Shown here in pieces: positions 7,273 to 28,181 of a stretch of DNA of 32,000 bases (its first letter is position 1; every line of letters begins with the position of its first letter). A program made the translations under genes and the position numbers. Under the pieces are notes generated by a model that was given only the letters and a program-made list of their open reading frames with translations, was not told the origin of the DNA and ran no database searches. Source of the stretch: Synechococcus elongatus PCC 6301 (lineage in GTDB: Bacteria > Cyanobacteriota > Cyanobacteriia > Synechococcales > Synechococcaceae); assembly GCF_000010065.1 (NCBI RefSeq), contig NC_006576.1, positions 1,740,001 through 1,772,000 on the forward strand, read 5' to 3'.

Positions 7273-7881
7273 CTACGGCTGGCGGGGTTTGAGTCGTGAG
7301 GGCTTGCTTGGTGCTGGCTGAGAAGCTGGCGTCTGCAGCTCTGAGACTTTGCAGTCCTTCTTCAGGAATAAGTCAGTCAAATGTTCGCGGCGGGCGGTCG
7401 CCGTCCCTAGTTCACCGCCAAGCTTCATCAACTCTCCTTGGCTGGTCTCGAGTTCAGCTATTTGGGCTTCCAAAGCACTGAATTCGGCGGCTTGGGCTGC
7501 AGAGCTGGCAAGGCTGCCGACAGTACTAGTAATCAGGCCCGCACCTGGAATCAAACCTGCGAGGCCACTAAGCGTACTGATGGCGCTGGATGCCCCCCCA
7601 ATACCACCAGCAGAGGAAGTCATGGCGCGGCTCGTGCGACTGACTTTGTCCATCAGAGCTTCGTACTGGGTTTGGCGATCGCGGATCGTTGTTTCCAGAT
7701 CCTGCACTTCGGTGTAGAGCTGGGCACAGGTCAGCTCGCCATCGCCGAGTTTTTTGACTGGGCCGGTGGGAAATACCCCTTCGGAATCGAGCAGAGGGTC
7801 AAAAGTTTGAGCAAAGGCAGCACCGATACTCGAACTCAAGAGCATGGGGACGAGCAAAAGCTGACTCAGGAGCCAACGCAT
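7273..7881 (-). CDS. Hypothetical secreted/periplasmic protein with a coiled-coil-like C-terminal half
   Basis: It has an ATG start and a signal-peptide-like N-terminus (MRWLLSQLLLVPMLLSSSIGAAFA|Q). There is a Ser/Gly/Ala-rich centre, a heptad-like segment EFSALEAQIAELETSQGELMKL and a Pro/Lys-rich tail. Confidence 0.6.
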   Translation of the reverse strand: MRWLLSQLLLVPMLLSSSIGAAFAQTFDPLLDSEGVFPTGPVKKLGDGELTCAQLYTEVQDLETTIRDRQTQYEALMDKVSRTSRAMTSSAGGIGGASSAISTLSGLAGLIPGAGLITSTVGSLASSAAQAAEFSALEAQIAELETSQGELMKLGGELGTATARREHLTDLFLKKDCKVSELQTPASQPAPSKPSRLKPRQP

Positions 7882-8171: not shown

Positions 8172-8478
8172 GGGGCTTATCCGAGGAGCAATACGCCCCT
8201 CATTGTAGGCAGAGTTGGCGATCGCAACAGTTCAGGGACCTGATCAGAGATTGATGAAAATCATAAATTTAGGAATGATGACCTGACAGAACAGCCTTAG
8301 TTCTTATTTATTTAATAATCCTGAAGACTGGCAGCAAAGCTTCATTGAGACTTGACCTAGCGCTTTGGTAAACGCCGTGTTTGAACAAGGTTTGTATCCC
8401 GTGTAGCTAGTTACGGATCAGGTTGACTAAAGTCCGGCAGAATAGAATTAGATTTAAGAGAAGAGGGCCAGACGGTCT

Positions 8479-10059
8479 ATGGCTCGACGATGGGTCCACA
8501 AAAAACGCAACAGCAGCGATCGCGGCTATATCCTAGGCATCGTAATTGTCCTTGCCTTAGTTCTAGGGGTTAGTGTCGCTGCCCTAGCGCTCCGGAGTGC
8601 TGGTGAAAAAGCTGGGTCGAGCCAGCGGAATAGTGTTGATCTGAGCCTTTCAGCAGCAGAAATCGGTCAAGACCGCCTCTTTGCTAATCTCAATGGAGTT
8701 TTTGGACCTTATGCCTCAGCGGCGTTCCCTGATACAACGACAGGAGTTGCAACGACCGCAACTCGTTCTTGGGCACAACTCAGAACAGTTCTGACTTCGG
8801 GAGGGACAGCTAACGCTAATCCCTGCTCAACTCCAACTCCAGACTTTAATATCCTCACGACAGTTGGAACGAGTACTTTAGGAAATAGTGGTCAGCTGAG
8901 TTGGCAGTTGGTTAGCTATAAGCCTCAGGCTAACAATACAGCCCGGGTCGTCATGCGGGGTTTCCAAGGTACAAGTAGCTCAAACATACGAACAGAAGTT
9001 GAGCGAACCTACGCCACACGTCGAGTAACAGCCTTTAATACTGCTTCTACGTTTCCTGCACTGCTGACGGGCAGTGTGACACTAGGGAACAACGATGTAA
9101 TTTCTGTCGTAGATCCAAATACAGGACAATCTGTTTGTAACGCTAATGTTTACTGTCTAACTTGTACCGGTATTAATAATTTTGGCCAGAACCCTCAAAG
9201 TGTTGTTGATGGTGACTTGGTTTATCGTGCAACAACACCCGACGCCGATGGGAACTCTCTACTAAGTAATGGCATTGACTGGAATCAGAATACTAATTTT
9301 CCAGCTCCTAAGGTATGGCCAGGTTATCCAACAATCCCTATTCCTTTTTCTGCAGTAACTAACTTGCAAATTGCAGCTCTTTTTGCGGCACCTTCTTCTA
9401 CTCTAAATCCTGGGTTCTACAATGACTTAGGGGGTAGGCTAAGCCCAAGTAACCCGCTAGATTTACGGCTGAATCCAGATATCACAGGAAGTATCACTCT
9501 TCCGCGCTCAACTGATGTTATTGGAGCAAATGGAGCCTACAACTATTTAGTCCGGGATGTAACAACCAACGGTAATGAGTTTATTCGCGTCAATACGCCT
9601 GGCTGCGAAGGTGTAACCCCCGTCCCAACTTCAACCTGTAAGCCAGTTTATCTATATGTCGTGGGTGACGTGAATGCTGATTTCTTGCATACAAACTCGC
9701 CCACTGGGACTACAACGGTTAATGAGCCGGAAGACTTTGTGATTTTTGGTCGGCCTGGTGACTACACTGCCTCTGGCATTGATCAGACCATTACTATCAA
9801 TGGTGGCTCGCGAGTAACCAGTGCTTTAGTGGTCGCTCCCCGCGCACGAGTAGGCGTCAACGGGGGGTCTAACAACCCAGACTTTTACGGTGCTGTCTGG
9901 TCAAAGGAATGGAATGGCTCTAGTAGTAATAACGTTGAGATTGTTGTTCCCCTCGACATTGCTGAGAGAGCAAGAGAATTCTACAATTCACCCCGTCCAA
10001 CGGTCCTTCGCCTGAACTTCCTAGATATTTGGAGAGCAGGGGGTACGTTTAATCCATGA
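8479..10059 (+). CDS. Large PilX/GspK-like minor pilin (cassette 1), putative pilus-tip protein
   Basis: 526 aa. A basic N-terminus is followed by G|YILGIVIVLALVLGVSVAALAL, a prepilin-like hydrophobic helix without Glu at +5, as in PilX_N/GspK-type proteins. The rest is Asn/Thr/Ser/Gly-rich. It is a paralogue of 11617-13104. Its stop overlaps the next start (ATGA at 10056). Confidence 0.75.
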   Translation: MARRWVHKKRNSSDRGYILGIVIVLALVLGVSVAALALRSAGEKAGSSQRNSVDLSLSAAEIGQDRLFANLNGVFGPYASAAFPDTTTGVATTATRSWAQLRTVLTSGGTANANPCSTPTPDFNILTTVGTSTLGNSGQLSWQLVSYKPQANNTARVVMRGFQGTSSSNIRTEVERTYATRRVTAFNTASTFPALLTGSVTLGNNDVISVVDPNTGQSVCNANVYCLTCTGINNFGQNPQSVVDGDLVYRATTPDADGNSLLSNGIDWNQNTNFPAPKVWPGYPTIPIPFSAVTNLQIAALFAAPSSTLNPGFYNDLGGRLSPSNPLDLRLNPDITGSITLPRSTDVIGANGAYNYLVRDVTTNGNEFIRVNTPGCEGVTPVPTSTCKPVYLYVVGDVNADFLHTNSPTGTTTVNEPEDFVIFGRPGDYTASGIDQTITINGGSRVTSALVVAPRARVGVNGGSNNPDFYGAVWSKEWNGSSSNNVEIVVPLDIAERAREFYNSPRPTVLRLNFLDIWRAGGTFNP

Positions 10060-10649
10060 AGAGAATTCATAAACGATCGCGCCGGTCGCAGTTAGGCTTC
10101 TCACTGGTCGAGATCCTAGTCGCTGCTATTCTGACTGTCCTCTTAGCTCAAGCAACTGCGGCTGCTTTAAGAATTTCAGTCCAAACTCAAAATCGGGCCA
10201 GCACTGAAAACTCTTTTGAAAATGCCATTGTTGCTGATTTAGAGCAAGTTAGAGCTATCAATCGAAATCTTTGCCGTAATCCTAACTTTGATCGCACTGC
10301 AACAACTTCTCCTAACAACCTGAGCTATGGTCCTTTTGGTGACTGTGCTGGAACTATCTTTCAGGAAAGATGCCGGGCAACGGGCACCACACCCGGATTT
10401 GGTAATCTTCTCCAAGCGCAAGTCCCTAATTTTACGAGCCAGACTGTGATTGTGAATGGACAGACTTGGACTATATCTCGACAAACTCTTGTTCCCGATC
10501 GTCCTCTCAACTCAGGAGATGCCGGCTATGCAGAATCGAGTCAGTCAGTATTGAAGGTTAGATATGACTTGACTAGAGGAAGTACAACAATTGCACCGGC
10601 TTTTGTCACCGAGTTTGTTCCTGATGCAGTAGGCTCGTGTCAAGGATAA
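10056..10649 (+). CDS. Prepilin-type N-terminal cleavage/methylation domain pseudopilin, PilV/GspI-like (cassette 1)
   Basis: Canonical motif RRSQLG|FSLVEILVAAILTVLLAQATAAAL with Gly-1, Phe+1 and Glu+5. 197 aa with 4 Cys. Translationally coupled to the upstream gene. Confidence 0.8.
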   Translation: MKRIHKRSRRSQLGFSLVEILVAAILTVLLAQATAAALRISVQTQNRASTENSFENAIVADLEQVRAINRNLCRNPNFDRTATTSPNNLSYGPFGDCAGTIFQERCRATGTTPGFGNLLQAQVPNFTSQTVIVNGQTWTISRQTLVPDRPLNSGDAGYAESSQSVLKVRYDLTRGSTTIAPAFVTEFVPDAVGSCQG

Positions 10650-10794
10650 GTTAATTAACCCTAGTATTAAACTTTCTACTAGATTAAAGGTTTGCCCTTT
10701 CTAGCATGTCCATAGCATTCGTTTAATTCATTCTTTCATCCTGAAACTCAGTAGTCAGTATGACTCGTAGCCTAGCAACAGGAGAACTATCGAG

Positions 10795-11487
10795 ATGAGT
10801 ACGCAACGCCTCTTTTGGCGATGGTTTTTACAGCGTCATGGTGAAGCTGGTATCACTCTAGTCGAGGTTCTAGTTGCGGGTATTATTGGCGTGTTGGTTG
10901 TTTTGGCGGGCGGTTATGCGTTAGTGACCAACCTCCGAGTCGATCGCGAACTGTCATCAGCCGCAATTCAACGCAATCTTCAAACGAGAGCTTTGGAGTA
11001 CATCAGTAGTGAAGTCCGTCAAGCCAACTTAATCTACGCGCCGAATAACACACCGAACCTGTGCAGTAGCTATACGAGAGTCTTGGGGCTGCAAACAACG
11101 GTGAATGGTAGCAATCGCAATATTGTTTATGCGGTTGGCAATGCCAACAACCCATGGCGGGGCGATCGCGTGCTATATCGCTGTGGCCCGCCAATCGATA
11201 CCTCCACTGGACGTTACAGCTCAGGTAGCGACGTTGAAGAAGTGATTTTGGATGGCTTGAGCAGCGCTACCCTGGTGGCTAATAGCAATGGATGTGGTGC
11301 TGTCCCGACGGCCTACGCTGTTAGCAGCAGCAATACAGCAGGCCTGCGTGCTTTTTTCCGTACTGCCAGTAACGTCGTGAACACTAATTCCGCACAAATT
11401 CTGCTGGGGATGCAAATTGATCGAGGTATTCAAGGAAATGCAACGAGTTGTGCAAGCATTGTTGCTTCCAATCGTTCGACCCCTTGA
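10795..11487 (+). CDS. Prepilin-type pseudopilin, PilW/GspJ-like (cassette 1)
   Basis: GEAG|ITLVEVLVAGIIGVLVVLAGGYAL has Glu+5 but Ile at +1. GGAGAA lies 9 nt upstream of the ATG. RNLQTRALEYISSEVRQAN and YRCGPPIDTSTGRY blocks are shared with the 13716-14948 product. Confidence 0.7.
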   Translation: MSTQRLFWRWFLQRHGEAGITLVEVLVAGIIGVLVVLAGGYALVTNLRVDRELSSAAIQRNLQTRALEYISSEVRQANLIYAPNNTPNLCSSYTRVLGLQTTVNGSNRNIVYAVGNANNPWRGDRVLYRCGPPIDTSTGRYSSGSDVEEVILDGLSSATLVANSNGCGAVPTAYAVSSSNTAGLRAFFRTASNVVNTNSAQILLGMQIDRGIQGNATSCASIVASNRSTP

Positions 11488-11616
11488 TAAATGAGTAATG
11501 CTAAGTATTTAGCGATTTTTGATCGCCTAGAGAATCTAGTGAACTGTACTTGTCTACCGCTAGCAGCAAAAATTCACTAAGATTTGGGTATATTCGTCTC
11601 TGGTGCTTAGGCTGCA

Positions 11617-13104
11617 GTGATGGTGAGACCTATCCAACTTGTGCGGGCGTGGTTGATCAGGCGATCGCCTAAGGCACGGTACCGTAAGCCCGGTGGGTAC
11701 ATTTTGGCGACCGTCATTGGTTTGAGCCTTATTTTGGCGGTTGGCATCACCTCAGTCAGCATCCGAGCTGCTGCCGAGCGAGCAGGTAGTTTGCAGACAA
11801 CGACGATAAATCTTTCTCAATCCGCAGCCGAAATTGGGATCGAGCGCTTGTATGCCGTTCTCAACAACGGACCTTATCAGTCATTAGCAAGCAAAAGATT
11901 TGATAGAGATTCAGACACAACTACTTGGACAACAGAGATCAGTAATATCAACTCGGCAGCCAATCAGAACAGTAACAACGTAAGAGGGTGTGGTATTACC
12001 CCAGCAGTTACCACCCAGCAGCAGCTAAATGACTTGACAGCCGGGACTACAACAATTGCTTCTACTTCAAACAATATCTGGTGGAGACTGAAGAGCTATT
12101 CCCCACCGGATCTAACAACTAATCCAAAAACCCCTGCAACTATCGTGATGCAAGGTGGAACAGGTACTAGCTCTGGTGATACCTCAGGTCGAAGAACCGA
12201 AATTGAGAAAAAGTTTTTCCCTGAGAATGGAACCCCCATTCTTCGCAATGCACTAGGAAATGCTGCACTCTTTGCCGGGTCAATTGACCTTGGCAACAAT
12301 GATGTCCTCTCCAGTGATGCTACTCAGGGCTGCGCCAACGTCTATTGCCGGGATTGCCAAACTGGGCAAGGTCCAAACAGTACTGTTGAAGGGGCCGTTA
12401 TTACCTTGCCAGCTTCAGTTCCATTCCCGGAACCAAAAGTCTGGCCATCTTCTGGAGCAACCCAAGCGAATGGTTTCTACGACCGTAAAGGTCAAGCGCA
12501 ACCTTTTGGAACTCCCCCACTCTTACGAGTTGCAGATTTTCCTAATACAGATGCCAATAAGTTTATCAACATTCGAGTTGATGATATTCCTGCCAATTTA
12601 AAAGTCATTAATGACAGTTGTGGGGGAGCTATCAGCACTCCTGATCGATTGCCTGTCAATACCAATTCCGGCTGTAAGCGAGTTGCAATTTACTTTGAAG
12701 GCAATATCACTGGACCTATTACTCAACTTTATGCAGACCTTCCTACGGCTACCTTTCTTCCTTACCCAGAAAATCTAGTTCTTTATGGCTTGCCTTCCAC
12801 TGCCACCGGCAATCAAAACATTACCTTAAGTGGCAACAGTGACAAAATTCAAGGAGCAGTTATCGTAGCTCCCAAAGCCCGTGCTGGGATTAACGGTGGT
12901 CCGCCGAAAAGTCGTACTAACCCAGATGTTTATGGGCCACTCTATGTGGGAATTTGGGATCGCTCTAACAGTAATAACGCAGAAATTGTCGTTCCTTATG
13001 ATATGTTTGCCCGAATTGATGGCTTAATTCCCAATCTCAATGAGATCACGACTTTAGTTTCACTGCGGAGTGCAACATCATGGCAAAAGGGAGGCAATCT
13101 CTAG
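11617..13104 (+). CDS. Large PilX/GspK-like minor pilin (cassette 2), paralogue of 8479-10059
   Basis: 495 aa. G|YILATVIGLSLILAVGITSV lacks Glu+5. Blocks shared with the cassette-1 protein are SAAEIG..RL, W.L.SY.P, LGNNDV, C.NVYC..C, FP.PKVWP, VAP.AR.G.NGG and NN.EIVVP. The start is GTG 11617 or ATG 11620. Confidence 0.75.
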   Translation: MMVRPIQLVRAWLIRRSPKARYRKPGGYILATVIGLSLILAVGITSVSIRAAAERAGSLQTTTINLSQSAAEIGIERLYAVLNNGPYQSLASKRFDRDSDTTTWTTEISNINSAANQNSNNVRGCGITPAVTTQQQLNDLTAGTTTIASTSNNIWWRLKSYSPPDLTTNPKTPATIVMQGGTGTSSGDTSGRRTEIEKKFFPENGTPILRNALGNAALFAGSIDLGNNDVLSSDATQGCANVYCRDCQTGQGPNSTVEGAVITLPASVPFPEPKVWPSSGATQANGFYDRKGQAQPFGTPPLLRVADFPNTDANKFINIRVDDIPANLKVINDSCGGAISTPDRLPVNTNSGCKRVAIYFEGNITGPITQLYADLPTATFLPYPENLVLYGLPSTATGNQNITLSGNSDKIQGAVIVAPKARAGINGGPPKSRTNPDVYGPLYVGIWDRSNSNNAEIVVPYDMFARIDGLIPNLNEITTLVSLRSATSWQKGGNL

Positions 13105-13673
13105 TGGGATTGAGTTTTCTTACCAAGCCTTACAAATCCCTTGGCCGGCGGCGTCGCTCTCAACGAGGCTTTAGCATAACTGAAGTTATCGTTGCTGCCA
13201 TCCTGACCATTTTGATCGCTCAGGCAACAACTGCTGCTTTAGTGGTTAATGCTCGAACTCAGGGCACCTCTGTCGAAGAGTCGCAATTTCTGAGGATTGT
13301 TAACCAAGATGTTGAGCGAGTCCGAGATGTTGCTAGTGCACTGTGTAGAAGCTCAACTTCTCCCTTGAGCTACAACGGTTGCAATCCTCCAACTAATCCC
13401 AGCTTGAAACAACGCTGTGACAGTACAAGTTCTAATGCTGGGCTGGCACAATTACTTTCAAGTAGCCTACCCGCTTTCTCTGACAATATATTTACAAGTA
13501 AAAATCGTTCGACTGTGACGATCACTAGAACTTCCTCTATCCCGACTGTCCCGGGTGCCTCATCTTTCTCTGTGTTACGTCTGGCCTATACTTCATCTGG
13601 TCTATCACCGAATTTATCGTATGTGACGGAAGTGGTGCCGGACGTCGTCGGTTGGTGCTCAACTGCCATTTAA
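13080..13673 (+). CDS. Prepilin-type pseudopilin, PilV/GspI-like (cassette 2)
   Basis: RRSQRG|FSITEVIVAAILTILIAQATTAAL is canonical. The C-terminal VTEVVPDVVGWC parallels VTEFVPDAVGSC in the cassette-1 paralogue. ATG 13080 overlaps the upstream gene by 25 nt. An alternative start is GTG 13104, which overlaps the upstream stop (TAGTG) and has GGGAGG 9 nt upstream. Confidence 0.8.
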   Translation: MAKGRQSLVGLSFLTKPYKSLGRRRRSQRGFSITEVIVAAILTILIAQATTAALVVNARTQGTSVEESQFLRIVNQDVERVRDVASALCRSSTSPLSYNGCNPPTNPSLKQRCDSTSSNAGLAQLLSSSLPAFSDNIFTSKNRSTVTITRTSSIPTVPGASSFSVLRLAYTSSGLSPNLSYVTEVVPDVVGWCSTAI

Positions 13674-13715
13674 AAACCTTCATTCAACTGATCACTAGTT
13701 TTTACAGGCATATCC

Positions 13716-14948
13716 ATGAAGAGCGATAACTTAAGTGCCTTGCTAAGAATCTATTGGGCTCTAGTACCCAAGGATGAAGCGCGATCGCAGCAAGGGTTTA
13801 CGATTACCGAGTTATTGGTCGCCAGTACCATTGGTATCATTGTGATTTTGGGCGGAGGCTATCTGCTTAAGACTAATCTCGATGTCGATCGTGTTAGCTC
13901 TACCAACTCAGCTCAAAGGAATATTCAAAATCGAGCCTTAGATTTTATTAGTAATGAAATTAGGCGGGCCAATGCTGTTGTGAGTTCAAGCTCTCGTTCC
14001 TGTAACGGAGTAACGCCAGTCCTCAGTATTCGAGTACCTGATCCGAGCAACTCTACGAGCACTTCCGCAGTCAGAATTATCGACTACGCCGTTGCTACTC
14101 CAGCTGCTCCTTGGCAAACGACTAGTAATGCTCGGGCGATTTATCGATGTGGCCCAGAGATTAACAGTTCTGGTCAATATGATTTCACTTCTTCCACAAC
14201 CGTGACTGACCTGCTCGTTGATCGAGTTGCAAATGCTAACCCTACGGCAAGCGGTGTTTGTAGCAATCTTAATGCCAATGCAATTACTTCACCTTTTTCG
14301 GGCTCAGCAACAACTAGTGGAACAAACGGTTTAGTTGTTCGCTACGAAGCAAGTGATCCGCGATCGGCTCAAGTCTTGATTGCCTTCTTGCGAAACGTAG
14401 GGAATGGAGGTTCTCCAGGTACCGACTGCGTCACGAATATTGTTGCTGCTCGCGCGATTGATCCTGCCAATATTGCGTCTAGCCCATCGCCTAGCCCTAC
14501 GCCGACACCCACGCCTACGCCGAGCCCATCTCCTACTCCGTCACCTAGCCCTACGCCGACACCCACGCCTACGCCGAGCCCATCTCCCACTCCGTCACCT
14601 AGCCCTACGCCGACACCCACGCCCACGCCAAGCCCATCACCTGCGCCGACTCCCGTTTCTATCTCAATTGCCTCAATTTCTGGTGGAGGTAATAACTCAA
14701 CTGTTGGGCTTAACCTTGGTAGCCTTAGTTTGCTCGCAGGTGTAACCGGTTTCAGGATTTTTGGTTGCACACAAAACAATAGTACCTGTACACCTTCCAC
14801 GGGCGGTACGCCGACCTTAACTACTTCATCCACTACCCCTACTATTCCAAATATCGACTTGCAAGGTAATAGGAGAGCTTGTTTTACTGCTCAAGCAGTT
14901 GGACCTCTCAATATTGTTTTAGGAACTTCTACTGTGTGCACAAATTAA
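13716..14948 (+). CDS. Modular PilW/GspJ-like pseudopilin (cassette 2) with an (S/T)P-repeat linker and an extra C-terminal domain
   Basis: ARSQQG|[24 protein letters not shown] is canonical. The pilin body is paralogous to 10795-11487 ([32 protein letters not shown]). A linker of about 58 aa made of S/T/A-P dipeptides follows, then a module of about 97 aa with 4 Cys. Confidence 0.75.
14481..14654 (+). repeat. In-frame 54-bp tandem repeat (about 3.2 copies) encoding the SP/TP linker
   Basis: The unit agcccatctcctactccgtcacctagccctacgccgacacccacgcctacgccg encodes [18 protein letters not shown]. There are two full copies differing at 3 synonymous sites, flanked by a 42-nt and a 24-nt partial copy. 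Confidence 0.9.
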
Positions 14949-14959
14949 GTTCTATTCTT

Positions 14960-15838
14960 GTGAATTTTGACTTGAAGCCTCTAAATTTGATAAAAACTAT
15001 TTATGATTTCAGTCGACAAGAGGTTCTTTTAACTGAAACTGAGTTGTTTCAGTTACTCCAAAGCTTTGAGGACTGTCCACCTCGTGAGAGTCTACAAAGT
15101 TCCTCTTTTCAGTGGAGGAACCTGTTGTTTTCTCAGGTGTCAGCGGGTAATACGACTTACTGGTATTCCCAACAAATACCGATTCAAATCAATTCAAATT
15201 TAAGTGGTATTGCCAACCATCTAGCTGTAGAGTCTTCAACAGGGAAGCCAGATATTTTATATTGGCGAATCCTTGATTTTTTAAGCCCTGAAAAGCTACA
15301 ACAGCTTTGGAATTATTTACTAACTGCCCGATCGCAATTTAATCCGGCTCACAACTCCGCAGGTTTGAATAACTATCGACAATCTCTTTTTACTGCTCCT
15401 CCTCCTGAAATTTATTCCGAGATCAGTGAAAAGATTTTAGGTGCTTTGATACCAATTGCCGATGAGCTGCCCAATTCCTCACAAGAAATTGGCGAGATAG
15501 AGATGCAAATAACAGCTCACAACGATGGTCATTATTACAAAATTCATAATGATAACGGCAGTCCTGATACAGCTACACGTTTTCTCACTTACGTTTACTA
15601 CTTCTATCGACAACCCAAACCATTTACTGGTGGCGAGCTGCGACTGTATGAACTTGCTATCAAAGATGGCTTTTACGTTGCAGGCGATCGCTATCAAGAC
15701 ATTGAACCGCTACACAATAGCCTGATTGTTTTCCCAAGCCACTACATGCACGAAGTTCTACCGATTCGATGTCCTTCTCAGCGATTTGAGGATAGCCGCT
15801 TTACAGTTAATGGTTGGATTCGAGTTGCTATTGACTGA
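14960..15838 (+). CDS. 2OG-Fe(II) oxygenase superfamily protein, prolyl 4-hydroxylase-like
   Basis: The C-terminal half carries H-N-D (His 15545-15547, Asp 15551-15553) and a distal His in MHEVLPI (15749-15751). An Arg in RFTVNGW (15797-15799) completes the facial triad plus 2OG-binding Arg, with P4H/PF13640-like spacing. There is no in-frame ATG near the 5' end. Candidate starts are GTG 14960 (used here), TTG 14972, or TTG 14879, which has AGGAG 3 nt upstream but overlaps the previous gene by 70 nt. Confidence 0.75.
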   Translation: MNFDLKPLNLIKTIYDFSRQEVLLTETELFQLLQSFEDCPPRESLQSSSFQWRNLLFSQVSAGNTTYWYSQQIPIQINSNLSGIANHLAVESSTGKPDILYWRILDFLSPEKLQQLWNYLLTARSQFNPAHNSAGLNNYRQSLFTAPPPEIYSEISEKILGALIPIADELPNSSQEIGEIEMQITAHNDGHYYKIHNDNGSPDTATRFLTYVYYFYRQPKPFTGGELRLYELAIKDGFYVAGDRYQDIEPLHNSLIVFPSHYMHEVLPIRCPSQRFEDSRFTVNGWIRVAID

Positions 15839-15842
15839 TTTT

Positions 15843-16409
15843 CTAGCTTGAAGTTCGACAGCTACCGCTTTGCACAGTACCAGTTCTGACTAGCCCTAGG
15901 GGTCGTGCAAGAACGACACAGCGTTGTACTGGCGTTAATGTACTACTCAAGCGAATTTCTTGGGTTGCATTACCTGTCCAGTAAACATTGCCGCTGGGAT
16001 ATGCGAGTACGTTTGAACTTAGATTCTGAGCTACTGTGATTTGATTTCTAGCAAAGCTACGACTACGTAAAAGACAATTCCCCGTGGGTGCTGCTGTTGT
16101 ATCACGGTTAATTCCACCAGCAACAAGATCAGTGGCTTTCAAGGTACAGGTTCGATTTAACCGCTGAGCTTCACGTTGCATCTCTAGAATGGCTGACTGT
16201 ACTTCTGAAGTAGCTTGATCTAGCTCTTGCTGACCCAAAAAACCAGCCACGCTAGGTCCTGCGATCGCGGCTAGAATCCCTGCCACAATTAAAACGACTA
16301 AGATCTCAGTGATTGTAAAACCTTGCGATCGCACTGCTCGGCGTAAATGAGCATAAAGTAAACGCTGCTCTAAGACGAGTTTTAATCGTGACATTGCTAA
16401 CCTTTCCAT
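15843..16409 (-). CDS. Prepilin-type pseudopilin, FimT/FimU/GspH-like
   Basis: VRSQG|FTITEILVVLIVAGILAAIAGPS is followed by GFLGQQELDQATSEVQSAILEMQREAQRLN, a layout typical of GspH/FimT-family pseudopilins. It converges on the oxygenase gene with a 4-nt gap. Confidence 0.8.
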   Translation of the reverse strand: MERLAMSRLKLVLEQRLLYAHLRRAVRSQGFTITEILVVLIVAGILAAIAGPSVAGFLGQQELDQATSEVQSAILEMQREAQRLNRTCTLKATDLVAGGINRDTTAAPTGNCLLRSRSFARNQITVAQNLSSNVLAYPSGNVYWTGNATQEIRLSSTLTPVQRCVVLARPLGLVRTGTVQSGSCRTSS

Positions 16410-16909
16410 CCCAACGCGATCGCAGCTTACCTCTATTCTCGCAAACGATGCAGGGATTAGCTTGCCCTAGGCGAGCGATCTTGTGCCAAAGACCGATCGC
16501 CTGGCCTTTCCTGATCAATACTCAGTGACTCTCTAACTATAGTCAGCGCATGATCAACAGAGGCTACCTAGTAAAAAAGATAGGACTGGTGTAGTCGAAT
16601 AAGGATCAGCTTATCTTCAACAACAACTCACTACGCTCAAACATTGCTTAGCTACTCTCTGAGACTGTCGCGATCGCCTTCAACCCCTGCCAGAGTAGTA
16701 CTGCCAATGTCTGAATTCTTGTTGTGTCTACCGCTTCTCCTGCGCAGAGAGTAGATCAGTGATCGACCCCAAGAACTCTCTGGTATTCCAAAGAAACCAG
16801 TAATCTCCTATCCATTAGTGATAGCGATCGCTGTTGGGGCGGATTTCTCGCCTGCCAGCATCAAGGCCCGAGTGTCAGAGTAGAAGGAGAACCCTTCAGA
16901 GGCAGACTG

Positions 16910-17299: not shown

Positions 17300-18196
17300 G
17301 TGAAGATTGCGATTACGGGTGCGACAGGCTTCGTTGGGCAGCGCTTAGTCGAACGACTGCAGGCCGAGGGTCACGAACTGCGCATTCTCAGTCAGCGACC
17401 GACTGTGGCGCAGCAACTGACGGGCTGCCAAGTCTTCGATACTGCGACTGAAACGAGCTGGTTAGCAGCGCTAGAAGGTGCTGATGCAGTCGTCAATTTA
17501 GCGGGGGAACCGATCGCAGAACAACGCTGGACACCAGCCCAAAAACAACGCCTTAAAAACAGTCGTGTTCAAACCACTCGGGCCTTGGTGACTGCGATCA
17601 CGGCCGCAACCCAGAAACCCCAAGTCCTCGTCACTGCCTCTGCGATCGGCTACTACGGCACCAGCGAAACGGCGCAATTTACGGAGGAGAGTGCTGCTGG
17701 ACAGGATTACCTCGCGGAAATTTGCCAAGCCTGGGAACAGGAGGCGCAAGCGGTAACAGTGAGTGGGACCCGTTTGGTGACCCTGCGAATTGGAATTGTT
17801 GTTGGCCCAGGTGGCGCGATCGGCAAAATGCTTGGTCCCTTCAAGCTGTTTGCTGGTGGCCCGATCGGCAGCGGTCGGCAGTGGGTCTCTTGGATTCAAC
17901 GAGAAGACTTGGTCTCGCTGATTCTGGAAGCGATCGCTAATCCCAGCTATCAAGGGACTTACAACGCCACAGCGCCACAGGCAGTGCGAATGGCTGACCT
18001 CAGTGCCACCCTTGGTGAAGTCCTACAGCGGCCATCTTGGTTGCCAGTGCCGGCGTTTGCCCTCGAAGCACTCCTGGGTGAAGGGGCGCTACTAGTTCTG
18101 GAAGGTCAGCAAGTGCTGCCCAAACGCTTGGAAGCCGCGGGTTTTCAATTCCGCTATCCCGATCTGAAATCAGCGCTGCAGCAATTCCTGCCCTAG
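17300..18196 (+). CDS. TIGR01777/YfcH-type NAD-dependent epimerase family protein (SDR with a DUF1731 C-terminus)
   Basis: GTG start 15 nt after psb28-2. Rossmann motif MKIAITGATGFVGQRL, then NLAGEPIAEQRWT, SAIGYYG, GSGRQWVSWIQREDL and a C-terminal GFQFRYPDLKSAL. Confidence 0.85.
   Translation: MKIAITGATGFVGQRLVERLQAEGHELRILSQRPTVAQQLTGCQVFDTATETSWLAALEGADAVVNLAGEPIAEQRWTPAQKQRLKNSRVQTTRALVTAITAATQKPQVLVTASAIGYYGTSETAQFTEESAAGQDYLAEICQAWEQEAQAVTVSGTRLVTLRIGIVVGPGGAIGKMLGPFKLFAGGPIGSGRQWVSWIQREDLVSLILEAIANPSYQGTYNATAPQAVRMADLSATLGEVLQRPSWLPVPAFALEALLGEGALLVLEGQQVLPKRLEAAGFQFRYPDLKSALQQFLP

Positions 18197-26258: not shown

Positions 26259-28181
<1,923 letters not shown>

Follow-up and report, generated by a model that had tools for sequence, protein, structure and literature searches.

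A tandemly duplicated minor-pilin island in Synechococcus elongatus that probably supplies tip components to type IV pili

Introduction

Why does a cyanobacterial chromosome keep two diverged copies of a pilin-like gene triplet side by side, with one adaptor-like gene at their end, and what would each copy do? This question is raised by a stretch of 32,000 nucleotides from Synechococcus elongatus PCC 6301 (NC_006576.1, positions 1,740,001 to 1,772,000; here called the window), in which a preliminary description had read positions 8479 to 16409 as two tandem cassettes of GspK-, GspI- and GspJ-like minor pilins that might furnish interchangeable tips for one type IV pilus (T4P) machine. Our analysis favors, with a probability of roughly three in four, the reading that this region is a minor-pilin island encoding tip or priming-complex parts for a T4P machine located elsewhere, with cassette 1 as the main and cassette 2 as the alternative set. 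The general idea of alternative tips is already published (Taton 2020; Schuergers 2026 preprint), and the present analysis places this locus within it.

Results

Exact-sequence lookup of the proteins identified the eight genes of the island as the equivalents of Synpcc7942_2486 to Synpcc7942_2479 (below, the last four digits), with the 526-aa product of 8479-10059 identical to PCC 6301 syc1620_d. The map from window to locus tags follows from GenBank protein numbers that run parallel to the tags (ABB58512 = Synpcc7942_2482). All seven open reading frames (ORFs) of the preliminary description are present where it had placed them. The island reads as follows, with X1, V1 and W1 forming cassette 1 and X2, V2 and W2 forming cassette 2.

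8479..10059, + strand: X1 = RntA, Synpcc7942_2486; 526 aa; PilX-type cap minor pilin without Glu5
10056..10649, + strand: V1 = RntB, Synpcc7942_2485; 197 aa; PilV-type minor pilin; identical to ABB58515
10795..11487, + strand: W1 = Synpcc7942_2484; 230 aa; PilW/GspJ-type; third gene of the rntAB operon; identical to ABB58514
11488..11616, + strand: inter-cassette spacer; 129 nt; candidate cassette-2 promoter or 5' leader
11617..13104, + strand: X2 = Synpcc7942_2483; RntA paralog of 494/495 aa; start at GTG 11617 or ATG 11620
13104..13673, + strand: V2 = Synpcc7942_2482; PilV-type RntB paralog; 189 aa from 13104 (likeliest) or 197 aa from ATG 13080
13716..14948, + strand: W2 = Synpcc7942_2481; 410 aa; PilW-type W1 paralog with an added linker and C-terminal module
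14960..15838, + strand: Synpcc7942_2480; 2-oxoglutarate-Fe(II) oxygenase of the prolyl-4-hydroxylase type; start uncertain, with the ORF opening at 14879
15843..16409, - strand: PilA2 = Synpcc7942_2479; 188 aa; FimT/GspH-type minor pilin

Two cassettes from one old duplication

The recurrence of the triplet, pointed out in the preliminary description, is borne out by BLASTP, which recovered three homologous pairs in the same order in both cassettes. The large pair X1/X2 aligns end to end at 34% identity (E 1e-53), the small pair V1/V2 over nearly its full length at 38% (189/197 aa; E 2e-32), and the medium pair W1/W2 at 32% across residues 11-247 of the 410-aa W2 (E 8e-24). These are true paralogs, with similarity far beyond chance. 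RntA, 2483 and the orthologs of both grouped as one clade in 200/200 bootstraps of a neighbor-joining tree built from 73 representatives of the family, and the duplication therefore arose within the S. elongatus lineage. Both cassettes are intact and syntenic in strain UTEX 3055 (CP033061) and in the lineage represented by contigs L008 and L009, where the six cassette genes retain 81-95% aa identity, and the cassette-junction arrangement with intact ORFs is kept in the more diverged contig L010 (54-78% identity). The duplication is nonetheless old, its arrangement predating the split of the diverged strains.

The ATGA overlap at 10056, taken earlier as a sign of translational coupling between X1 and V1, is real and spans 4 nt. 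At the second junction the overlap of X2 and V2 is 1 nt, in the form TAGTG at 13104 in the window and TAATG behind a conserved GGGAGG in diverged relatives. Because the relatives keep TAATG and GGGAGG at this point, a V2 start at 13104 (189 aa) is likelier than one at 13080, even though ABB58512 is an exact match to the 197-aa form. Of the two options offered previously for coupling at this junction, TAGTG is thus favored and a 25-nt overlap from 13080 is the less likely.

The ratio of nonsynonymous to synonymous substitution rates (dN/dS), calculated by the Nei-Gojobori method against L008 at dS values of 0.8-1.5, was 0.030 for rntA, 0.067 for rntB and 0.057 for 2484 in cassette 1, and 0.070 for 2483, 0.123 for 2482 and 0.098 for 2481 in cassette 2, with 0.012-0.106 for flanking housekeeping genes. 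Both cassettes are under purifying selection, and cassette 2 evolves somewhat faster than cassette 1. The preliminary description had left open whether the duplication is old or under diversifying selection; its age stands, while diversifying selection is not supported, with dN/dS of 0.03-0.12 for all six genes at dS ~0.8-1.5. Pseudogenization of cassette 2, which had been raised as a reason to doubt the two-tip idea, is rejected on its dN/dS of 0.07-0.12 and on intact ORFs in the strains compared, X2 being intact in UTEX 3055, L008, L009 and L010. Gene conversion between the cassettes was likewise rejected, with only patches of 61-73% DNA-level similarity and no conversion tracts.

The small, medium and H-like proteins are pilin-like

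A six-frame scan of the window found exactly five prepilin motifs of the form G-(F/I)xxxE, located in V1, W1, V2, W2 and PilA2 and reading GFSLVE, GITLVE, GFSITE, GFTITE and GFTITE (V1 G-FSLVE, W1 G-ITLVE, PilA2 G-FTITE); in all five the motif precedes a hydrophobic alpha1-N helix, as in class III signal peptides. Matches to Pfam N_methyl ranged from E 8e-5 to 0.36, with the cutoff exceeded by PilA2 only. NCBI names V1 (ABB58515) a 'type IV pilus modification PilV family protein' and W1 (ABB58514) a 'PilW family protein', and a relative is named 'PulJ/GspJ family'. The PilV model TIGR02523 matched at E 0.055 (13.9 bits, cutoff 52), and against NCBIfam the W-type proteins gave only weak matches to GspJ (NF006453, E 0.2) and HpsC. 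PilA2 matched Pfam GspH PF12019 along profile positions 1-105/108 (18.8 bits, cutoff 21) and TIGR01708 with E 8e-8 (32.5 bits, cutoff 80). Cyanobacterial minor pilins have been sorted by structure into PilX, PilV, PilW and FimT families, with RntB a named PilV_Com member (preprint 10.64898/2026.02.12.705559). The K-, I-, J- and H-like roles assigned in the preliminary description agree with the NCBI names and with these preprint families.

The large proteins belong to a cyanobacterial PilX family

The N-terminus of RntA, RGYILGIVIVLALVLGV, lacks Glu5. X1 reads G-YILGIVIV and X2 G-YILATVIG, both with a hydrophobic N-terminal helix, and family relatives that begin GF(A/V/T)LP are likewise without this residue. 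Word-indexed homology searches returned only a handful of X1/X2 relatives, and an exhaustive profile search was needed to reach the 535 cluster representatives that make up the family. Pfam DUF7305 (PF23981) was matched by 60/73 aligned members, with X1 itself at E 0.011, under the cutoff, and X1 and X2 belong to this cyanobacterial DUF7305/PilX family. Neither protein matched a Pfam or NCBIfam model of GspK (T2SSK) or PilX, and PilX_N was matched by one of the 73 relatives.

An AlphaFold2 model of RntA built from a 73-sequence alignment reached a predicted local distance difference test score (pLDDT) of 80.1 and a predicted template-modeling score of 0.75; a model from a 5-sequence alignment was unusable (pLDDT 39.5). 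The model places an N-terminal helix at 18-71, a four-strand sheet at 131-184, a beta-rich region at ~190-490 and a last strand at 508-521. This topology agrees with that published for cyanobacterial PilX, a pilin fold interrupted by a beta-solenoid ahead of the last strand (preprint 10.64898/2026.02.12.705559). A Foldseek search of the RntA model against the PDB returned nothing significant, with weak matches to ice-binding solenoids below significance, and PDB sequence searches with the single RntA sequence and the 73-member profile returned nothing relevant, ComZ included. By motif and position X1 and X2 are like a K/X-type cap, yet neither sequence nor Foldseek makes them detectable members of the GspK family.

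Cassette 1 and cassette 2 are regulated differently

Regulation and mutant phenotypes are taken here from published data, the expression values having been read from Taton et al. Supplementary Data 1. Genes 2486/2485/2484 are high-confidence circadian genes of the dusk class (class 1) that peak at 12.4/11.8/11 h, change by -0.45 to -0.58 in an RpaA knockout and respond to a shade pulse with log2 values of +1.84/+1.81/+1.38 (PMC7125226). Genes 2483/2482/2481 are not circadian (peak values 22.4/22/14.8 h), with RpaA-knockout changes of +0.06 to +0.32 and shade-pulse log2 values of +0.21/+0.30/+0.36 (PMC7125226). Because one cassette is dusk/dark-induced and the other is not, a control boundary lies between 2484 and 2483. 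The remote pilA3/pilW pair (2590/2591) is under much stronger RpaA and dark control than rntA/B (PMC7125226).

In a five-strain alignment of the spacer 11488-11616 the 5' part is variable and the 3' ~50 nt are conserved. An invariant block, TTGGGTATATTCG at 11584-11596, contains a -10-like TATATT (11589-11594), which lies 22 nt ahead of GTG 11617 and 25 nt ahead of ATG 11620. The conserved 3' spacer is a candidate promoter or 5' leader of cassette 2. A consensus promoter and terminator scan was uninformative, with fewer matches than in shuffled controls and none inside the spacer. A separate control point between the cassettes, as surmised in the preliminary description, is backed by the published expression data and by the conserved non-coding block upstream of X2.

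Mutant phenotypes cross the cassette boundary

The preliminary description had pointed to a link between this kind of gene and natural transformation, and cassette 1 indeed opens with rntA (2486) and rntB (2485). In the transformation screen by random barcode transposon-site sequencing (RB-TnSeq), both were required (-2.73 and -2.29), as was the remote pair pilA3 (2590, -2.67) and pilW (2591, -2.18) (PMC7125226). The remaining island genes scored +0.32 (2484, not significant), -0.73 (2483, not significant after Holm correction), -0.03 (2482), -0.35 (2481), -0.98 (2480, not significant) and +0.97 (pilA2, not significant after correction) (PMC7125226). Fitness Browser data tie 2486, 2485, 2484 and 2479 to pilB, C, M, N, O, Q, ogt and sigF1 at cofitness values of 0.95-0.99, pilA2 in particular reaching 0.95-0.98 with the pilus machine, and neither 2481-2483 nor 2590/2591 are among those top lists. 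The view of cassette 1 as the DNA-uptake set is therefore right for rntA and rntB and does not extend to 2484 and pilA2, which are dispensable for transformation, yet cofit with the pilus machine. Among biofilm formers, RB-TnSeq found mutants of rntA and of pilA2 to be overrepresented (PMC9260433); a 2482 knockout stayed planktonic (PMC11345509).

The triplets depart from a canonical four-gene operon

A same-strand operon of PilX (DUF7305), PilV, FimT/GspH-like and PilW genes occurs in four unrelated cyanobacterial contigs (L001 and L011-L013), all of which share the PilX-PilV adjacency of S. elongatus. W1 is homologous to the last gene of these sets, PilA2 is 27-40% identical to their FimT-like genes (E 1e-12 to 1e-23), and one of the latter carries a precomputed weak GspH match. 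The ancestral cyanobacterial unit is probably a four-gene PilX-PilV-FimT/GspH-like-PilW operon. S. elongatus departs from it because the X-V-W triplet has been duplicated without an in-line FimT gene, and because the one FimT-like gene of the island is placed after both triplets and in the opposite orientation. The single H-like adaptor that had been noted earlier holds for the window and not for the genome, since pilA3-pilW, which is needed for transformation, lies elsewhere.

Two of these contigs have extra genes of their own. In L001 (10001-13208), a cyanobacterial metagenome-assembled genome, two tandem PilX-like genes of 477 and 517 aa, 29% identical over their N-terminal ~230 residues, precede a single PilV, FimT-like and PilW gene; here the cap gene alone is duplicated and not the triplet. 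In L013, a full X-V-FimT-W operon is followed 1.8 kb further downstream by an extra pair of FimT/GspH-like (163 aa) and PilW-like (223 aa) genes (8519-9678), a pair of the same kind as the published S. elongatus pilA3-pilW.

W2 carries an extension beside a putative modifying enzyme

W2 consists of a W1-like part, an (S/T)P-repeat linker and a conserved C-terminal module of ~95 aa with four Cys. The linker is an SPSPTPTP-type repeat encoded by a 54-nt tandem unit at 14490-14642 (2.8 copies, 94% matches); strains differ in the length of this linker but keep the C-terminal module. The called W2 products measure 410 aa in the window, 424 aa in UTEX 3055 (L003 15241-16515), 412 aa in L008 and 434 aa in L009 (10033-11337). 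By C-terminal alignment the UTEX 3055 linker is 14 residues longer than that of the window, and the L009 call starts ~22 codons further upstream, its extra length therefore not being linker. The linker and C-terminal module could be presented at the filament tip.

The adjacent 2480 is a PF13640 protein (E 2e-18) whose best solved relative is the prolyl 4-hydroxylase 6t8m (E 3e-5). It adjoins W2 and pilA2 in a low-GC island and is syntenic in all strains examined, and it is the fastest-evolving island gene, with 70% aa identity to L008, dN/dS of 0.13, and 95% identity to UTEX 3055, where its neighbors are at least 99.5% identical. No obvious signal peptide is present, and there is no 2480-like gene beside the pilin operons of L001 or L011-L013. 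The oxygenase might hydroxylate the W2 linker.

Setting of the island in the window

The remainder of the window is occupied by housekeeping genes, including an ABC transporter, gyrB, miaA, ndhO, psb28, argH, ftsY, nusB, dnaK, aroE and others. The inventory combined a direct scan of ORFs at 20.4-32 kb with, for 1-8 kb and 16.4-20 kb, the Pfam families precomputed for the syntenic UTEX 3055 and L008 genes, and over this range the window holds, as first described, no major pilin, ATPase, platform protein or secretin.

The island (window 8400-16500) is compositionally foreign, with GC of 0.42-0.49 compared with 0.53-0.61 in the remaining window and third-position GC of 0.33-0.48 compared with 0.57-0.62 in three flanking genes (miaA, an epimerase at 17300 and argH). 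Its dS is also above that of the flanks. This odd composition could reflect horizontal origin or relaxed codon bias. In UTEX 3055 and the L008/L009 lineage, a nucleotidyltransferase/HepT-type toxin-antitoxin pair sits between pilA2 and psb28 (L003 18390-19089; L008 13187-13883), and it is missing from the window (16410-16909) as a clean indel of ~880 nt. Just upstream of the island, between miaA and ndhO, a 202-aa protein (7273-7881, - strand) is conserved and syntenic in all strains, with a signal-peptide-like N-terminus, a coiled-coil-like Ala/Ser-rich body, dN/dS of 0.08 and no Pfam family. An Hsp70/DnaK paralog lies at 26259-28163 (- strand), ~10 kb from the island, a proximity that may be coincidental; in Synechocystis a DnaK1-DnaJ3 chaperone system has been tied to PilB and motility pili (preprint 10.64898/2026.02.12.705559).

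Discussion

The gene content, conservation and published genetics of this island suggest a framework for how it might contribute to pilus assembly. An X-V-W triplet together with a FimT-type subunit would form a tip or priming complex that nucleates T4P filaments on a machine whose genes lie elsewhere. This triplet was duplicated in tandem within the S. elongatus lineage, and a single pilA2 stands at the island end on the opposite strand. Cassette 1, as a dusk/dark-induced operon, would supply X1, V1 and W1, and X1-V1-W1-PilA2 is the most likely main priming complex because the cofitness of 2486, 2485, 2484 and 2479 resembles that of the core pilus machine. Cassette 2, an old set that is intact, kept by selection and under separate control, most likely primes an alternative filament tip, and it could also prime the pili that rntA/B mutants still make. 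The physical complexes, the tip position and a distinct job or ligand for cassette 2 are what we infer within this framework.

Several points weigh against it. The priming or tip complex is deduced from gene organization and from published S. elongatus and Synechocystis genetics, and the small, medium and H-like proteins match the PilV, GspJ and GspH models only below curated cutoffs. RntA/RntB have been grouped with PilA3/PilW, and not with 2484/PilA2, as a Com-type complex (preprint 10.64898/2026.02.12.705559). Deletion strains of rntA/rntB are still piliated, as are those of pilA3/pilW; the former fits a back-up primer, yet X1-V1 is then not the sole route to pili. In the published screens found, cassette 2 has no clear phenotype, with transformation unaffected and the 2482 knockout planktonic. 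Alternative tips on one machine, as proposed in the preliminary description, are supported in principle by experiments in Synechocystis and Thermosynechococcus; no distinct job is known for cassette 2.

A variant that would refine this reading rather than replace it is that pilus tips are mixed from sub-modules, with an RntA-RntB cap shared by two PilW/FimT bases, the 2484+PilA2 base serving bulk pili and the PilW(2591)+PilA3 base serving dusk-time competence pili, and with cassette 2 as a third tip. A shared cap with exchangeable bases is suggested because the transformation data put RntA/RntB with PilW(2591)/PilA3: transformation needs rntA, rntB, pilA3 and pilW and not 2484 or pilA2, and loss of pilA2 tends, if anything, to improve it, which would fit a competition of the bases for caps. 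Further in its favor, the pilus machine has 2484 and pilA2 beside rntA/rntB, and not pilA3/pilW, as its top cofitness partners, a separate FimT-like and PilW-like pair stands beside a full set in L013, and control by RpaA and darkness is far stronger for pilA3/pilW than for rntA/B. The basis of this variant is, however, entirely published mutant statistics, in which the pilA2 gain was not significant after correction; redundancy of W1 and W2 in transformation could mask a requirement, and a PilW-profile search did not retrieve 2591, which may therefore not be a GspJ equivalent. We regard the variant as a tentative possibility that deserves serious attention, and its fuller form, with two-gene sub-modules, a shared RntA-RntB cap, competing bases and a third cassette-2 tip whose W2 module is possibly modified by 2480, as somewhat more doubtful still.

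Cassette 2 might instead be a redundant back-up of cassette 1, kept for expression at other times or conditions and without a new tip function. Its shared architecture and conserved Cys patterns, its different expression profile, the piliation of rntA/rntB mutants and its lack of a phenotype of its own in screens are all compatible with this. We consider it unlikely, since the copies have diverged by 62-68% in sequence with both under purifying selection since before the strain split, W2, unlike W1, has acquired a linker and a conserved C-terminal module, and cassette 2 is unable to substitute for rntA/rntB either in transformation or under the fitness conditions that yield machine-like cofitness. 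A poorer prospect is that one set primes a short pseudopilus, like that of a type II secretion system (T2SS), for export of proteins such as the biofilm inhibitor through a shared T4P/T2S machine. Pilus-machine mutants of S. elongatus do have altered exoproteomes and lose secretion of the biofilm inhibitor (PMC9260433), rntA and pilA2 mutants are enriched among biofilm formers, and the H/I/J/K logic is common to the T2SS. Direct evidence is nevertheless nil, the island proteins fall under the cutoffs of T2SS GspH/I/J/K hidden Markov models, and the published classification puts them with T4P core minor pilins. The notion that cassette 2 is silent or in decay, to which the absence of a strong phenotype in published screens and low-amplitude expression might point, is effectively refuted by conservation and selection: none of its three ORFs is broken in any strain compared, a contig of just 54-67% identity among them, dN/dS is 0.07-0.12 at dS ~0.9-1.5, the translational coupling and the upstream block are conserved, and its transcripts are measured in published data sets.

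S. elongatus is a main model for cyanobacterial genetics and biotechnology thanks to its natural DNA uptake, and rntA/rntB are part of that ability. A duplicated, modular island of tip genes would explain the discordant phenotypes of the neighbors of rntA/rntB, and it offers a concrete way to test the assembly of pilus tips from interchangeable sub-modules. The second tip set, 2483-2481, is uncharacterized and selectively maintained, and is an obvious target. Since specialization of one machine by alternative minor-pilin sets has already been published, the value of the present analysis lies in organizing known data rather than in describing a new kind of system.

Comparison with known systems

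The FimU-PilV-PilW-PilX priming complex of Pseudomonas aeruginosa and the GspH-GspI-GspJ-GspK tip of the T2SS each combine a Glu5-less cap, two pilins and an H-type linker, and serve as nucleus or tip of the fiber. The S. elongatus island follows this logic, encoding together a Glu5-less cap, two small or medium pilins and a putative H-type linker. Unlike GspK, its cap is a protein of 500 aa with a DUF7305 beta-rich insertion in place of the GspK alpha-domain; unlike in P. aeruginosa, no PilY1 is nearby and the X gene comes first rather than in the order FimU-PilV-PilW-PilX; and no match reaches a curated GspH/I/J/K or PilV cutoff. ComZ of Thermus thermophilus, a tip-associated competence pilin with a beta-solenoid, resembles RntA in being large and pilin-like, in its beta-rich insertion and in being needed for DNA uptake (likeness according to preprint 10.64898/2026.02.12.705559), although neither sequence profiles nor Foldseek linked the two here.

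Closer parallels are found among cyanobacteria. In Synechocystis, Com-type and EPS-type core sets each prime morphologically distinct filaments and double mutants are bald, and the functional split was confirmed in Thermosynechococcus (preprint 10.64898/2026.02.12.705559). For S. elongatus the same work annotates PilA3-PilW-RntA-RntB as a complete Com-type complex and ties a second set to biofilm behavior (preprint 10.64898/2026.02.12.705559). The island has its four protein families in common with Synechocystis PilA5-8/PilA9-12 and the Thermosynechococcus sets, along with a PilX that lacks Glu5 and carries a beta-rich insertion and the presence of several sets per genome that feed one machine. 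It differs in that its cassettes are lineage-specific tandem paralogs of one (Com-like) type rather than a Com/EPS pair, in that both triplets lack an in-line FimT gene while the lone pilA2 stands apart on the other strand, and in that functional data cross the cassette boundary, 2484 and pilA2 grouping with rntA/B in fitness and not in transformation.

Within the species, rntA/rntB of PCC 7942 as described by Taton et al. 2020 (PMC7125226) are the first two genes of cassette 1, present here as the PCC 6301 allele; that study named only these two genes at the locus and did not describe the triplet duplication. A UTEX 3055-specific four-gene pilin/GspH operon, pg2263-2266, is required for phototaxis (PMC9239245). 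It lies at another locus, is absent from legacy strains and from the window, and has four in-line genes including a GspH homolog. It gives the species a further complete set of minor pilins, with a dedicated behavior, and it shows such sets being gained and lost as modules.

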